This document shows positions 4,101 to 56,305 of a DNA stretch of 64,000 nt, in pieces. The notes beneath the pieces were generated by a model, which saw only the letters and a list, made by a program, of their open reading frames with translations, was not told the DNA's origin and did no database searches. Position numbers and translations under genes: made by a program. Positions within the stretch are counted from its first letter, which is position 1; the number at the start of each line of letters is the position of its first letter. Source of the DNA: Chiloscyllium plagiosum (taxonomy: Eukaryota); contig NC_057728.1 in the NCBI RefSeq assembly GCF_004010195.1, forward strand, positions 28,077,307-28,141,306. The letters are read 5' to 3'.

Positions 4101-7100
4101 CTGCCCTCATCAATCTTCTTTGTTACTTCTTCAAAAAACTCAATCAAGTTTGTGAGACATGATTTCCCATGCACAAAGCCATGTTAACTATCCCCAATCA
4201 GTCCTTGCCTTTCCAAATACATGCACATCCTGTCCCTTAGGATTCCCTCCAACAACTTGCCCATCACTGAGGGCAGGCTCACCAGTCTATAGTTCCCTGG
4301 CTTGTCTTTACCGCCCTTCTTAAACACGTTTGCCAACCTCGAGTCTTCCAGCACTTCACCTGTGACTATCGATGATAAAAATGTCTCAGCAAGAGGCTCA
4401 GCAATCACTTCTCTAGCTTCCCACAGAGTTCTAAGGTACACCTGATCAGGTCCTGGGGATTTATCCACCTTTAACCGTTTCAAGACATCCAGCACTTACT
4501 CCTCTGTTATTTGGACATTTTGCAAGATGTCTCCATCTATTTCCCTACAGTCTATATCTTCCATATCCTTTTCCACAGTAAATACTGATGCAAAATATTC
4601 ATTTAGTATCTCCCCCATTTTCTGCGGCTCCACACAAAGGCCGCCTTGCTGAGGGGCCCTATTCTCTCCCTAGTTACCCTTTTGTCCTTAATATATTTGT
4701 AAAAAAACTTTGGATTCTCCTTAATTCTATTTGCCAACACTATCTCATGTCCCCTTTTTGCCCTCCTGATTTCCCTCTTAAGTATACTCCTACTTCCTTT
4801 ATACTCTTCTAAGGATTCACTCGATCTATCCTGTCTATATTTGACATATGCTCCCATCTTTTTCTTAACTAAACCCTCAATTTCTTTAGTCATCCAGCAT
4901 TCCCTATAACTACCAGCCTTTCCTTTCACCCTGACAGGAATATACTTTCTCTGGATTCTTGTTATCTCATTTCTGAAGGCTTCCCATTTTCCAGCCATCC
5001 CTTTACCTGCGAACATCTGCCTCCAATCAGCTTTCAAAAGTTCTTGCTTAATACCATCAAAATTGGCCTTTCTCCAATTTAGAACTTCAACTTTTAGACC
5101 TGGTCTATCCTTTTCTGTCACAAATATAATTATGGTCGCTGGCCCCAAAGTGCTCCCCCACTGACACCTCAGTCACCTGCCCTGCCTTCTTTCCCAAGAG
5201 TAGGTCAAGTTTTGCATCTTCTCTAGTAGGTACATCCACATCCTGAATCAGAAAATTGTCTTGTATGCACTTAAGAAATTCCTCTCCATCTAAACCTTTA
5301 ACACTATGGCAGTCCCAGTCGATGTTTGGAAAGTTAAAATCCCCTACCATAACCACCCTATTATTCTTACAGATAGCTGAGATCTCCTTACAAGTTTGTT
5401 TCTCAATTTCCCTCTGACTATTAGGGGGTCTATAATACAATCCCAATAGGGGCAGTAGACATTCAAGATGCCATACTCCTCCCCATGTATTAAGGCTTTG
5501 ATGATTACAAACCGCCCATATTCATCCTTAATTTGATCTATTACTTGGAATGGGAGGTTCCTCTGTATTAATATGGCCACCTCTGCTTTTTGAATTGAAA
5601 GGCAAAAATAATACCCTGCTAAACCCTCCCTGCTGTAATTTTAAATGTTCCTTATCATTCAAGTATGTTTCTTGTAGCAGAGCAATATCAACACTCTCCT
5701 TTCTGAGATTCGAGAGCACCTTCTTTCTTTTGACCGCGAATGACTCCCCTTTATGTTCCAGGTGCACTATCTAAAGAACAACTAGCCATAACCACCTAAA
5801 GTGGCCCGCAGCCCCCTGAGAAGAAGAAGCCTACTCATAGTGCGTCGAGTGGAGACAAAACAAGATTTATAAAATCTAAAAACTACCGCTACAGACACTA
5901 CCAAAACAAAACAAAACTAATCACTACTCTTAAATTAAACACAAAACAAATAGCTGGAGACGTTCTCCCTTGCCCATAGGAGGCACTCATCCTACTCCCT
6001 AATACCACCATGGCTCCTTCCGGCTAGAGCTGCGCCTCAAACCCAAGTAATACAGAAACAAAGAAAACCTATAATTTAAATACATGGAAATGAAAAGTAG
6101 GTGTCCAACCCATCCCCTCCATATGTCAACCCCACTTGTCTTTAATGAAAAAAATGACCACCCCACACTCAAAGAGAACAAAATGAATAACAGGAATTAA
6201 TAACAATGGCAAGAAAGGGAAAGATAGAGAGAAGAAATAGGGAACCCCCCCCCCAACCCCCACATTATCAGAACCATGCCAGGCATACAAAATTAACAAG
6301 TGAGAGAGCAAAGTTTTTTTGACCCAGTCAGTCTATTTTAAAGAGTCTAGGAATTCCCTTGACTTCTCTACTGAGTCAAAGTTATGAACAGACCCTCCAT
6401 GGCTGAAGTGCAATACTGCCGGATGCCTCACAGAGTATTGAATGTTCAGGTCTCTCAAACTCTTCCTGACTTCATCAAAGGATTTCCTTTTTCTAATTAC
6501 AGCCCCAGAAAAGTCTTGAGAAAACATAATTTTCGACCCCTTGTACACCAGGTCCTGTGAGTCTTTTTCCAGCATTTTGGAGGCTTCCATAATAATTTGC
6601 TTTTCCTTATAGCACTGGAGTCACGCTAGGGCCGGGTGGGGACGCTGATCCGACCCGGACCTGCGCATTGCCATCCAGTGGGCCTGTTCCACACACACCC
6701 GGCCCGACTCGAGTCCCAGTCCCAGAAGGTGCAGGAGCCAGTGCTCCAGGAGCTGACCAGATTCTCACCTTCTTCACGTTCCGGGAGCCCAATTATACAT
6801 AAGCTCTTTCTTTGACCTCGATTCTTGAGGTCGTCGACCTGGTCTAACAAGGCTCACATCTGGCTTTCCAGTATTTGGATCTGCTCCTCTGAGGTTTCTG
6901 CTGTGGTCTCCAATGCCGTGGTCCTCTGCTCAACCGCCTCCACGCGTTGATCAAGCTTTTGGATCTCCTGCCCATGCTTTTGTAGAGATAGGTTCCAGCA
7001 CTGACTTGATTATTCTCTCAGAGATTTAAGATTCCAAGACTAAGTTCTGCTGTTCCAGTGGGTTCAAAGGCGCTGCCGTGGGGGTCGGCTCTGTGGCCAT

Positions 7101-20743: not shown

Positions 20744-20970
20744 AATTAAAAATCACACAACACCAGGTTATAGTCCAACAGGTTTAATTGGAAGCACTAG
20801 CTTTCGGAACGTAGCTCCTTCATCAGGCCCCTTCATCAACCACCTGATGAAGGAACGACGCTCCGAAAGCTAGTGTGCTTCCAAGTAAACCTGTTGGACT
20901 ATAACCTGGTGTTGTGTGATTTTTATCTTTGTACACCCCAGTACAACACCAGCATCTCCAATTCATGACT
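20744..20970. mobile_element. Palindromic Penelope-derived element (family A) with 13-bp TSD and a hammerhead motif on each strand
   Basis: TSD CTTATTGGTAGAA at 20731-20743 and 20971-20983; inverted arms 20748-20827 and 20843-20924. Confidence 0.85.
20841..20875 (+). ncRNA. Minimal type-I hammerhead ribozyme motif (putative)
   Basis: CAC-CTGATGA-A-GGAacgacgcTCC-GAAA-GCTA-GTG: core CUGAUGA/GAAA, stem II GGA/TCC, palindromic AGCT stem III, stem I CAC/GTG, predicted cleavage after CUA (20872). Confidence 0.65.
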
Positions 20971-30449: not shown

Positions 30450-30591
30450 CCTGAATAAGGGCTTCCTGAAGAAGGGCTTATGCCCGAAACGTCAATTCTC
30501 CTGTTCCCTGGATGCTGCCTGACCTGCTGCGCTTTTCCAGCAACACATTTCCAGCTCTGATCTCCAGCATCTGCAGACCTCACTTTCTCCC
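30450..30591 (+). mobile_element. Penelope-derived short element (family B) with 15-bp TSD, inserted in the Copia integrase
   Basis: TSD CATTACAATAATATT at 30435-30449 and 30592-30606; same family as 41204, 43324 and 58574. Confidence 0.85.
30463..30497 (+). ncRNA. Minimal type-I hammerhead ribozyme motif (putative)
   Basis: CTGAAGA-A-GGGC ttat GCCC-GAAA-CGTC: perfect 4-bp stem II, palindromic ACGT stem III, GUC triplet ending at 30493; stem I is weak in this copy. Confidence 0.65.
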
Positions 30592-50389: not shown

Positions 50390-53300
50390 TAGCACACAGA
50401 TACAGATTGGATCCTGAATATTGAAGGATATATAGCATTTAGGAGGGACAGGGAACTGGGAAAAGGTGGAGACATGACTATTCATTCATGATACAATTAG
50501 CATTATCAGGAAGGATAACTTAAATTCAGGAAATCAGGATTTGGATTGAGATGAGAAATGAAAACGGCAAGAAGTGACAGGCTTACTGCCACTGCCCTAC
50601 CCCACAAATAACCCCAACAGTAACCAAATGCTAAGATGTAATATAAAAGAAGAAATGATTAGAGCTTGTTAGAAAGGATATACAAGAATATTGAATGCAG
50701 CCAGAGTGGAAATTATTTTTTATTTTTCCCTGGATTGAAGTAGTGCCAGAGAGTTGAAAAAGGCAAACATTCTGCCTTTGTTTAAAAACGTATATAAAAT
50801 TGGCTCAGCAATCACAGACCAAGCAGTTTAATGTTAGTGTGGGGAAACTTCTATAAACTGTTACTTGGAATTGAATTAATAGTCACAGAAAAATGTAGAT
50901 TAATTTGGAAGAGTCAGAATGGATTTGTTAAGGGAAATTCCTGTTTAACTATTTTGCTTGATGTTTTGTTATGGCATATTTGGGTTTCTAAAAGGGTGTT
51001 AAATACAGTCCCACTCAACAGAGAAAAGTTGATAGAAAAGTTATAGTTGATAGAATAAAAGGAACAGTAGCAATGTGGATACAAAATTGACTTTGGGTTA
51101 GAAAACAGAGATTAATGGTCAATGGGTATTTTTCGGTCTGGAAGAAGGTTTTTAGTACTGTTCCCCAGGGCTAGGTATTAGTACCCTTGCTTTTCCTGAA
51201 ATATCTAAATGACCAGACCTAGGGGACAATTTTAAAATTTGCAGATCTCAGAAACTTTGGAGAATTGGAAACTGTGAGGAGGACATAGACTTCTTGTCCA
51301 TATGTGGGTGGACAGGTTACAGATGTGTTTCAATGCAGCAATGTGTGAGGTGATATACTTTGGTACAATGAGCATGGGAAGACATTGTAAAGTAAAGGGT
51401 ACTATTCTAAAGGGTGTATAGGAACAGAGAACCTCGGTGTATAAGCACATAAATCCTTAAAGGTGACAGCCTACAAAGAGAGATCTGTTAATAATAGTGC
51501 ACTTTGCTTCATAAATAGGGACTTAAAGTTTAAAAAGCAGGCAAATTATGATGATCTTATCCAAGACACTATTTAAACGTCAGCTGGAGTATTGCTCAGA
51601 TCTGATGCCATGCTGTAGAAAGGATGTGAATACATTGGAAAGTGTATACAATAAATGGTTCCAGGGATGAGAGAATTTATTTATAAAGAAAAATTGGAGA
51701 AGTTTGTACTGTTTTCCTTGGAGAGAATAAGGCTAAGAGGAGTTTAAAGAGAAATGTAAAAAATCATGATGTCTGAGTAGACAGGGAGAAACGATTCCTA
51801 TTCAGAAATGGGTCAAGAAACAGAAGGCACAGTTTTAAAGTATTCTATAATAGAAGCTAATGCGTGGTGAGAAACGTTTTTTTGAACAGCATGTAGTTAG
51901 GGTTTGGAATGCATTACCTGGAGGTTTGTTGGAGGGAGGTTCAACAGAGGCATTCATGAGGGCAGTGGGTGATTATTTAAATAAAAACAAGTTTTGGGAG
52001 AAAGGTAGGAGAATGGAATTAAGTTATAATGCTCAGATAGCCAGTACAGGCACAATGGGCTGAATAGCCTCATTTTGAACTGTGAATCTTCTATGAAAGG
52101 TACTGCAATAATCATGGGGAATTATAAACCAGATGTAGACTTGAAAAGTCAGAGAGACAAAGGTGGTGTGGGTAAAGAGCTTGTGCAAATGTTTTTAGGA
52201 TAGTTTCTTAGAATAGCACATTCTGGACCCAACCATATGCAATCAGATAGGATGTTTATTAATTAACCTAAGGGGATATTTCAGATTCGTTATATTCCAA
52301 TATGAAAGAACAATACCAAGAGGAACACCTACTATCCATAGTTCATGAAGAAATTGTTGTCTTCATTGGTCAGAGCATTGACTATAGCAGTTGGGACATC
52401 ATTTTACCGCTGTACATCACATTATCACTGGTAATGCCACATTTGGGGGACTGTATAAAATTCTGGTCGCCCTGCTATTAGAAAGATGCTAATAAACTAG
52501 AAAGGGTGCAAAAAGATTTACAAAGATGTTACCAAGACTGGAGGGTTTAAGTTATAAGAGGCTGAGATGTTTTTCCCTGGAGCAATGGAGGCTGAGGGGT
52601 GACCTTTTAGAGGTTTATAAAATTATGATGGGCATAGATAAGGTGAATAGGTGATAAGGTCTTTTCCCCAGGGTAAGGGAATCAAAAACTAGAGGGTGAG
52701 AGGGAGATATTTAAAAGTGACTGAGGAGTAACGTTTTCACATAGATGGTGGTGCGTATATGGGACAAACTGTCAGAGGAAGTGATAGAGACAACATTTAG
52801 ACAGACACATGGATAGGAAAAGTTTAAAGGAATATGGGCAAATGGGACTAGTTCAGTTTAGGAATCCTGGTCGGCATGGACAGGTTGGGCTGGAGGGCCT
52901 GTTTCTGTGCTGTATAACTATATGACTCTGTAGTATAAAACTTAAAGAAAAGGCATATAATTTCAAAGATGGATGGCAGGTTGGAAGATTGGATTGGACA
53001 GAAATATAACAGACAACAAAGATTAAGACAGAAGTGACTAAAATGCTAATAATGTAGTCAAATAAAGTTAGCCATAAATGTGAAAAGCAGATAGTGACAG
53101 ATTTTAGAAATATATAAAAAAGGAAAGAGTGAGTATGGGCCTACAGAAAGTAATTCTAGAGAATTAATAATGGAGTATAAGGGGATAAGTGATGAATTGG
53201 ACAGTATTTTGCCCCAGTTAGTCATTGTAACAAATATACAAACATCCAATAAATAGCTGTACATCAGAAAATGGAAAGGAGAGACAAACTCAAGAAAATT

Positions 53301-55085
53301 ACAATAATCAAGGAAGTGATATTAAAACATCAGAGTTGCAACCTGATGAACTTCATCCAATGTCTTAAAAGAAGGGTCTAGTGAGATAGATAAGTGATGG
53401 TTTTCCTTTTCGAAAAGTCCATGATTTGATCAAGGTTCACTTACATTGAAAAATAATAAATTTAATTCCTTCATTCAAAAATGGAGGGAGACTAACAGCA
53501 GGAAACTACAAGCCAGTTAGTTTAATATCTGCCACAGGAAAAACTTAGAAGGCTTTATTAAAAAATTAAGGAAAGGCACTTGGCAAATTCAGGATAATGA
53601 GGTACAGTAAACATAGTTTTGTGAAAGGGAAATCACAGTTAACTATTTTTGTTTTGGCATTTTTTGAGGAAGTAGCAGGTGCTGTGGATAAAAGGAAGCT
53701 GGTAAATTACTATCCTTAAATTTTAATAAGGCATTTGTAAAGTGCCACATCATTGAAGAAAATAAAACCCCTTGGAGTAGAGATTAATATGTTGGCATTA
53801 ATAGAAGAGATTGGCTAATTATTAGGAAACAGAGAGTAGGTATGAGTGGGTCATTTTCTGGTTGACAACATATAATGAGTCAAGTGACATGGGGAACTTG
53901 AACTGTTCATAATATATATGAATGACTTGGATGAAGGGACCAAAGGTACAGCTGCTAAATTTGTTGTTGATGCAAAGATAGGTAGTGAACTGTGGTTGTG
54001 GGTATGTTTACTAAGACAGGAAGTTGATTTGCAGACATTTTGTCCCCTGTCAAGTTGACATCTTCAGTGCTTTGAAGCCTCCTGTGAAGCCGGGAGTGCT
54101 TAGGTGGTTGGCACAGGATTCCCATTTCCTTGCTCGTTTTAGAGTGTCTCACCCTAGGTGTTCAAGGTTTGAGTAAAAATTTGTGACTTGGCTGCTGGTT
54201 GCCATAGTTGTGGGTATGTCCACTGAACTGGGAAGTTGATTTGCAAATATTTTGTCCAGTCTAAGTGACATCTTTAATTCTTTGAAGCCTCCTGTGAAGG
54301 TAGGTAGGAAAGTTTGTTGTGAAGGGAACACGAGAACGCTACAAACAATATGGATAGGATTCATGAGCAGGTATCTGAAAAATAGAATTTAATGAGGGAA
54401 AATATGAAAATGTCCATTTTGGCAGGAAGAATAAAAATAATGTATTCTCTGAATGGCGAGAGATTGGAGATCTCTATGGTCTAGAGTGATCTGTATGTTC
54501 ATGCGAAAGCTTAATATGTAACTACACAAAGTAATTAGAAAAGCTAATAGAATGCTGTTGTGAGGGTAACTGAATATTCCAGTGAGGTGGTTACGCTTTA
54601 GTATAATAAGGAATACCATGTAAAGTAATGGACATTATTTATAGAGGAACATATAAAAATTGGAAACAGTTCAGAAGTGGTTTACTAAACTACAATCTGA
54701 AATGGACAGGTTGCACCATGAGACTGAATGGACTAGACTCATAACTGTTGATATTTAAACTTTATTGAATTTGTTGACTTTATTGAATTACATAAGATCC
54801 TGATGGGTCTTAACAAGGTAAATATAGAAAGGATGGTGCTTCTTGTCAGAAAATCTAGAACTGAGAGTCACCCATTTAAGACAGATTTAAGATCAAATAT
54901 CTTCTCACAGTGCCATCAGCTTTACAAACTCTCTTCTTCAAAGGCTGGTGGAAGCAGAGTTGTTGATAAGCAAGAGAGTGAAAAGACGGGGATGCGAAGT
55001 AATCAAATCAGCCAAGATATTATTGAATAACAGAGCAGGCTCGAGAGGCCAAACACCCTGTTCCTGCTTCTAATTAGTGCGTCTG
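50390..55085 (+). mobile_element. Mosaic of nested old CR1 fragments downstream of the gene
   Basis: SQNGFVKGNSCLT, VVRVWNALP, several 3' UTR ends (~52080, ~52930, ~55075); heavily decayed. Confidence 0.75.
53986..54296 (-). mobile_element. Tandem two-hammerhead element (family C), period 212 nt, inserted in CR1
   Basis: Direct repeats starting 53995 and 54207; imperfect TSD AAGATAGGTAG (53975-53985) / AAGGTAGGTAG (54297-54307); - strand GCA-CTGAAGA-tgtcaacttgacagggga-CAAAA-TGTC-TGC. Confidence 0.7.
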
Positions 55086-55971
55086 TTTGCAGGTTGTGTG
55101 TAACATAAATAAATGCATGAAATCAATATATAACATTAAATCAGACCAATTGTTATTTGTTCTACCATACCCAGGAATCTGGGACAGAGTCAGAAAAACT
55201 GCAAATGCTGCATGTAAAATAAAAATAATGTTAGAAATACACAGTAGCTCACTTAGCACCTATTTTGACAGACCTTTGCTTATTGCTGGTAGTGAATTTC
55301 TATTGGTCAACTTAGGTCAACAATGAACGCTGTCCTGCCACTAAGTCTACTAAACCCAGTCTCGCTGGTAATTTATCTCACTTGCTGCAGTGTAATGATA
55401 ACAAAAGGAAAGAATTTGTTGTGAAATGTTTTTGATTTTCTGATGATGTTCATAGCACTAAATAATAGTTTATTTTCTCTTAGTTCTACATCTGTGAGTA
55501 ATAATCATTCTGTGTAGGGTACTGCATGAGACTTAATGATCAATCCATATAACTTGCTGTATAATGGCCAATAGCTCTCTCATTGTAGTTGAATGCATGA
55601 AAGTTTCATGCCTCCTTATGTGGTTTGATATTATAGTAGTTTAGGCTGCGATCAGCTTTGGCTTATTCATCTTTGTAATTGAATATATATGTGTAAAGGG
55701 AAAGAAAATAAATACATCATTAACATGGCAGTCTGAGATCAGTGTGTTTTTAACTCTGCAAGCCTTTGGAACTGAACTTTAAGGCAAAACATAGCAGTAA
55801 ATCGTGAAAAGAAATTCCTTTATCACATAAATATTTACAATTAAGAGATCATGTGAATCAAAATACATTTAAAAAGGCAAAATGGAACAGGGAACTTCTC
55901 ATTACATAAATAGCAAACAGGGAAATTTGGTGATGAAAATAGCAGATAGTTGGACAAAGTAAATCATAAAA

Positions 55972-56305
55972 TCATGCCATGGTAACAGGCCATTGGCCCA
56001 ACAAGTCCACAACAACTGTCCAAAGAGTATCCCACCCAGACCTATTCCCCGACCCCTAATAATCTACATTTCCCTGACTAATGCACCCAATCTACATATC
56101 CCTAGTCACATTGGGCAATTTAGCATGGCCAATTCACCCAACCTGCACATCTTTGGATTGTGGGTGGAAACTGGAGCACCCAGAGGAAACCAACTCAGAC
56201 ACTGGGAGAATGTGCAAACTCCAACCAGACAGTCGCCCGAGGCTGGAATCGAATGCAGATCCCTGGTGTTGTGACGCAGCAGTGCTAGCCAATGTGCCAC
56301 TGTGC
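55972..56305 (-). mobile_element. HE1-type V-SINE
   Basis: - strand head tggcacattggctagcactgctgcgtcac...ttcgattcc, V domain and CR1-like tail. Confidence 0.88.

Follow-up and report, generated by a model that had tools for sequence, protein, structure and literature searches.

A dead Penelope/Poseidon-type fragment with a short, likely twice-copied pseudo-LTR tandem in the Chiloscyllium plagiosum genome

The locus lies in a 64,000-nucleotide stretch of the Chiloscyllium plagiosum genome, referred to here as the window. An insert of 314 bp (53986-54299, minus strand) splits a LINE that we take to be a CR1, a name based on the initial annotation and on motifs rather than on a repeat-library call. 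The left part of this host element is a decayed reverse transcriptase (RT) region (53342-53985, plus strand) to which CR1 homologues align as far as 53985. The right part (54308-54602, plus strand) is defined by alignment with the same homologues. An insert of about 310 bp had been proposed from the window alone, and comparison with nine homologous loci confirms it. In five of them (L114, L115, L116, L119 and L122) the LINE is continuous across the site, passing from window position 53985 to 54306; the other four have no match to both flanks at the site. The unbroken homologues identify the 314-bp piece as an insertion. Sequence and empty sites together define a target-site duplication of 8 bp, with copies at 53978-53985 and 54300-54307 (plus strand) that agree at seven of eight positions. 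The duplication had been given as 10 of 11 bp. It is real, but shorter: 54297-54299 (plus strand) are element bases, corresponding to family positions -28 to -26, and form a 3-bp microhomology between the element 5' end and the target. Four bases at the other end (53986-53989, minus strand) separate the element 3' end from the duplication in the alignment and are either diverged or untemplated.

The insert is built from two equivalent pseudo-LTR segments of a Penelope element, read on the minus strand and numbered with the start codon ATG as +1. Repeat 2 (54207-54299) starts at -28. It is followed by a 'spacer' (54095-54206), which is the first part of the Penelope open reading frame (ORF), as judged from its translation and its 78% DNA identity to L034, a subfamily A copy. 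A junction at 54090-54094 then joins the ORF start (about +175 to +180) to position -28 of the next segment, repeat 1 (53990-54089), which runs to about +66/+70 and so ends at the shorter (about +68) of the two 3'-end clusters of the family. Spacer and repeat 2 together represent about 60 codons of the Penelope ORF, with one stop. The direct repeats of about 95 nt described earlier are confirmed, with 81% identity over that length by BLAST. Their alignment falls into two blocks, 53995-54045 against 54207-54257 (82%, spacing 212) and 54037-54089 against 54247-54299 (79%, spacing 210), and the 212-nt spacing is exact for the cleavage sites (54246 - 54034 = 212). A single contig of a related organism covers the whole of 53600-54700 with 33 differences in 1,101 bases, so the repeat layout is not an assembly artefact. 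Two further related organisms carry the stretch in pieces, and orthologous copies are thus present in three other organisms. Among the runs found to contain the stretch, none is recorded as RNA.

The repeat is the pseudo-LTR of a Penelope/Poseidon-type retrotransposon, in keeping with the link to Penelope pseudo-LTRs suggested at the outset. A search of the same genome with the repeat gave 3,237 first-look candidates, 40 of which were scored. In many copies, the sequence upstream of the repeat is the coding end of an endonuclease-like domain, and that downstream of it is an ORF leading to an RT. A full unit is found at L031:2198-5254, where the partial tandem is complete, with a period of 2,488 bp and a terminal repeat of 569 bp. 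Together with inverted partners and the two 3'-end clusters, it exhibits the partial-tandem and inverted pseudo-LTR layout. The single ORF of the family has an RT domain (Pfam RVT_1, E=1.9e-11 for the L036 ORF and 7e-10 for L029), and the translated window spacer aligns with the N-terminal end of the ORFs in L029 and L036. The C-terminal domain shares 46% identity with the corresponding end of an RT homologue of 824 aa. An endonuclease-like motif with CxxC and two histidines is visible there, and GIY-YIG scores (Pfam E=0.035-0.32) fall below the curated cut-off, with homologue P0033 reaching 22.3 of 22.6 bits. The L031 ORF piece 4206-4856, read by eye, contains no CxxC-type Zn-finger linker before the endonuclease; the Penelope/Poseidon clade is described in the available text of Craig et al. 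2021 (PMC8557442) as having no such linker between RT and endonuclease (EN). This is likely an EN+ Penelope-like element, and by domain order and motifs it fits the Penelope/Poseidon clade. The ORFs overlap the ribozyme. The stop of the upstream ORF falls within the stem II loop of the hammerhead, and the following ORF opens at an ATG formed by A9, an extra U and G10.1 of the hammerhead core.

In protein searches, the closest matches to L036:1675-3321 are shark (Chiloscyllium) sequences, 89-93% identical. Flatworm RTs follow, with up to 50% identity over the whole query, and no other vertebrate group appears among the top 120 matches listed. The best full-length relatives outside sharks come from parasitic flatworms (Dicrocoelium 50%, tapeworms 37-47%). 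Going by these sequence matches, horizontal transfer is possible.

Two sites account for most 3' ends of the family. Among 30 unbiased young hits of subfamily B (27 distinct loci), eight end at +63 to +71 and 22 at +97 to +116. Subfamily A has the same two clusters, with 11 and 18 of 30 copies. The usual forms in both samples are 5'-truncated single tails and head-to-head inversions. In inverted pairs (L087, L104, L109 and L093), the two members usually end at different 3' sites, one at about +68 and the other at about +107, and their 5' ends are often similar. Such head-to-head pairs look as if one RNA had been copied from both target nicks.

Each repeat in the insert carries a minimal type I hammerhead. 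Hammerhead 1 (54031-54070, minus strand) has the sequence originally claimed for it, with C3 at 54067, C17 at 54034, a change of G12 to A at 54041 and a change of C15.2 to U at 54037. Both changes do fall on CpG sites of the subfamily majority. The ORF start codon, whose use as an ORF start is seen in natural copies, lies within this core at 54061-54059 (minus strand). The intact ancestral core predicted by reverting the two changes is borne out at family level: the majority sequence is CGAAACGTC, and 4,800 exact intact cores occur in the genome. Hammerhead 2 (54243-54280, minus strand) is more decayed, as had been noted, with six core positions altered (C3, G5, G12, C15.2, G16.2 and C17) and a loss of 2 nt in stem II. 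The hammerhead assignment rests on family comparison, because an Rfam scan of 52000-56000 (E<=10) returned no hammerhead family. Folding of the insert (z -1.5) likewise gave no hammerhead fold. G12 is the catalytic general base of the hammerhead. With G12 changed in both cores, neither hammerhead can cleave, and by this comparison both are dead.

The window copy is a member of the older subfamily A, for which a 23-mer gives 331 exact hits. Of 30 subfamily A copies, 23 cover the core; among these, G12 survives in 16 and C15.2 in 15, and the other seven do not enter the per-position counts. None of the 30 has a wholly intact core. Repeat 1 departs from the majority at 7 of 88 non-CpG and 6 of 8 CpG positions; for repeat 2 the counts are 9 of 86 and 5 of 8. 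Five changes are common to both repeats, among them G12 to A and C15.2 to U. Four of the five are at CpG sites, and the shared changes do no more than hint that the template may have been inactive before insertion. In the related organisms repeat 2 retains G5 and C17, so decay went on separately in the C. plagiosum lineage.

The initial annotation took the locus as the record of a self-cleaving, possibly circular RNA monomer of about 212 nt, a retrozyme from which the insert would have been copied about 1.45 times round. The ancestral core was indeed intact, retrozymes are derived from Penelope pseudo-LTRs in the available text of a recent preprint (Li, Clavereau, Pollet, bioRxiv 10.64898/2026.07.22.740005), and in the C. 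plagiosum genome a fixed double-hammerhead unit is able to spread, as seen in a sister subfamily described below. Against such a monomer, the window junction occurs once among 16 junction-pattern hits (three of which are not this element), and there is neither an array nor a peak at 212 nt. The 22 direct hammerhead pairs spaced 185-245 nt apart range in period between 188 and 239, the window locus being the sole one at 212; 30 further pairs at 125-184 nt and 20 at 306-365 nt are equally scattered. The refutation proposed with the original reading, that other copies never have the tandem layout, is largely borne out: among exact pattern hits in the C. plagiosum genome there is no other copy of the 212-nt arrangement. 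Other short tandems do exist, each with its own junction, and none of the 30 subfamily A copies has the layout of the window locus. Regular arrays of three or more units are absent from the 92 pair loci mapped; at one locus (L070/L162) three cores occur, irregularly spaced by 144 and 225. A circle, moreover, would not end copying exactly at its own internal junction, as the two starts at -28 would require, and the five shared changes suggest, though they do no more than suggest, a template that may already have been dead. No repeated monomer with a family consensus was found, dispersed or arrayed. In place of complete consecutive hammerhead units there are 1.45 units with both cores mutated at G12, and the unit is not non-coding, consisting of the pseudo-LTR plus the first 60 or so codons of the element. 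A fixed 212-nt family was accordingly rejected, and copying from a retrozyme circle or monomer is very improbable. The only junction repeated among the 16 pattern hits is that of L045 and L046 (G000:C6:12413175 and 12428422), identical tandems 15 kb apart that probably reflect local duplication.

The reading that we consider well supported is that the insert is a dead Penelope/Poseidon fragment, likely produced in one target-primed event in which a short piece of RNA was likely copied twice. The endonuclease of the element would have nicked the CR1. Reverse transcription would then have started internally at about +68 and run to the RNA 5' end at -28, after which the RT would have jumped to about +178 and run to -28 again. 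The end would have been joined through the 3 bp of microhomology. The 212-nt period would thus correspond to the length of the copied RNA piece and not to a ribozyme-released monomer. The copy has been decaying neutrally from a time before its lineage separated from those of at least three related organisms.

Support for copying twice comes from the junctions of other short tandems. Hammerhead pairs with periods of 125-365 nt number 127, of which 92 were fetched. Exclusion of 19 pairs of the sister subfamily and seven containing N left 66, of which 32 had over 15 nt of other sequence separating the segments and 34 were contiguous joins. Where the upstream segment extends past +125, both segments start within 12 nt of each other in 11 of 17 tandems (shuffle mean 3.7, p=0.0003). 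Tandems with a shorter upstream segment show matched starts in one of 17. Across loci the 5' coordinate of the junction correlates with the 3' one (Spearman 0.73), the two adding up to about 150, and the junction-sum test without the window gives p=0.00015 (n=16). The window junction was entered as +184 in the correlation and sum tests, about +178 being closer. The 17-tandem set is small and partly non-independent, as L189/L190 are one locus, L070/L162 are one locus, and the window is itself one of the 17. The pattern of matched 5' ends and a sum of about 150 is seen across L061-L082 and L153-L222. In the junction statistics, this diagonal suggests as its simplest reading that one RNA fragment was copied twice.

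The position of the matched start differs between loci, from about -5 to -110. This spread bears on the idea that -28 is a transcription start and that the insert comprises two copies of a short leader RNA. Many copies recovered with the window query do start near -28 to -35, though the query favours them. Unbiased 5' ends are scattered, from -26 to -582 in subfamily B, where two of 30 lie within -25 to -35, and none of 30 subfamily A ends falls in that interval. A fixed 5' end at -28 is unsupported by these ends, and an origin from a leader RNA is scarcely credible.

An internal deletion of a longer tandem would yield the identical insert sequence. In such an event about 2.28 kb would have been lost from a full pseudoLTR-ORF-pseudoLTR template, through a polymerase skip or a later DNA deletion. 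Shortened units exist in the genome (L037, with a period of 1,132, and L040 and L043, at about 2.2-2.3 kb), microhomology deletions are reported for Penelope in the text available of Arkhipova et al. 2013 (PMC3846280), and many tandem junctions have overlaps of 1-8 nt. Internal loss leaves unexplained, however, why the deletion end should equal the 5' truncation point (-28 twice in the window, with matched starts in 11 of 17 loci) and why the junction coordinates should be correlated. We regard it as unlikely.

If one RNA fragment was copied twice, a long stem pairing its two arms, proposed to join -31 to -19 with +151 to +173, would explain the junction diagonal. A stem of this kind appears in single-copy folds of L031, L032 and L036, and not in those of L033 or L004. 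The fold energy of these regions is no better than that of shuffles (z +0.61 and -0.62), and a consensus fold picks other helices with no gain in covariation. Two-sided changes occur at 9 of 50 pairs of the RNA rod, as against 4.6 in shuffles (3 of 500), in a rod derived from these same sequences and with many of the changes due to CpG decay. As a tentative proposal, the short tandems could record an intermediate in which a pseudoLTR-ORF RNA domain with its centre near +75 is cut on both arms, its ends are held adjacent, and the RT copies it end to end more than once; a unit such as the 302-nt one, once formed, could then spread. If true, this would be a ribozyme-independent route from Penelope tails to double-hammerhead, retrozyme-like units.

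The sister subfamily has a fixed unit of 302 nt. Among pairs at 246-305 nt, 37 of 55 share one junction and this period. The subfamily is young and dispersed (L173, L177, L181-L185, L188, L191-L197 and L199-L202; for example, G000:C2:62678953-62679269). The 19 copies fetched have unique flanks, and most have normal 3' ends at about +68 or +107. In their unit, one tail runs to +68 and another begins at -163, with 71 nt of foreign spacer separating the two; the spacer is 100% identical in all 19 loci. The spacer motif is present at 65 places, none of them 302 nt from another. The nearest two on one strand are 1.1 kb apart, and there are no trimers. Upstream segments extend back to -427, into the ORF, with one spacer per locus; the copies therefore have the look of 3' transduction, not of rolling-circle copying. 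A single source locus is the likely origin, the double unit having presumably formed there when transcription read through two adjacent tails. Most fetched copies retain an intact downstream core, which has a GUU triplet, whereas the upstream core is often altered at A9 or truncated away. Assembly gaps lie directly next to several copies. Given these gaps and the identical spacer, assembly collapse within the subfamily is possible.

The source element closely resembles described systems. The Poseidon element PAc of Anolis carolinensis, as presented in the available text of Frangieh et al. 2024 (PMC11167929), likewise begins its ORF at the start of stem II, encodes an RT followed by a C-terminal GIY-YIG domain, for which the shark element has a candidate, forms partial tandems and has two internal sites of RT start (3' ends), separated by 30-40 nt within an AC-rich stretch. 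The sites differ in position, at about +68 and +107 in the shark-type family and mainly at +111-118 in PAc, and the window copy differs from PAc as a dead remnant of 314 bp whose two hammerheads both carry mutations. The minimal hammerheads of metazoan Penelope elements (Cervera and De la Pena 2014, PMC4209133, in the text available) have the same type I core with an extra base between A9 and G10.1, a palindromic 15.2-16.2, a long stem II, a short stem I and thousands of mostly single copies. There is no difference of kind from the shark elements, although sharks are not named in that text. Such motifs are reported there to cleave weakly and, in vitro, only as dimers.

Vertebrate non-LTR retrozymes (bioRxiv 10.64898/2026.07.22.740005; Cervera and de la Pena 2020, PMC7229834; both in the text available) share with the insert two direct type I hammerheads and an origin from Penelope pseudo-LTRs. 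Their hammerheads are about 200-300 nt apart and are also reported in one cartilaginous fish. The window locus, by contrast, has 1.45 units, lacks both a complete hammerhead and an array, and has a junction found nowhere else among the pattern hits. It fails the definition given in the available text of the preprint, namely two consecutive complete hammerhead units. The cartilaginous-fish retrozyme families of that preprint may include relatives. Partial-tandem and inverted Penelope insertions in the accessible text of PMC8557442 and PMC3846280 resemble the present copies in 5' truncation, partial tandems, inverted partners, an optional 30-40 bp tail, target duplications of 8-10 bp and microhomology at 5' joins. 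Matched 5' ends and the junction diagonal, in contrast, are not found in those descriptions, nor in the available portions of the wider Penelope literature surveyed; they may nonetheless have been published elsewhere.

The window locus behaves like any truncated Penelope insertion and is an ordinary fossil. In itself it is minor, a lifeless remnant of a sort known since 2014 and one of thousands of Penelope pseudo-LTR copies. Of potentially greater interest is the junction pattern across the family, since partial-tandem formation and the origin of retrozymes are both stated to be open questions in the available text of PMC11167929 and bioRxiv 10.64898/2026.07.22.740005. The matched 5' ends and the rule that the two junction coordinates sum to about 150 are testable in the existing in vitro Poseidon system. 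The 302-nt subfamily is a more promising candidate retrozyme precursor than the window locus, and more suitable for cleavage or circular-RNA tests. Hammerhead-like cores of other families also occur in the window. At 20800-20890, hammerhead-like cores of a different family overlap on both strands, with starts at 20844 (plus strand) and at 20839 and 20826 (minus strand). An apparently intact minimal hammerhead core, again of a different family, lies at 30466-30500 (plus strand).
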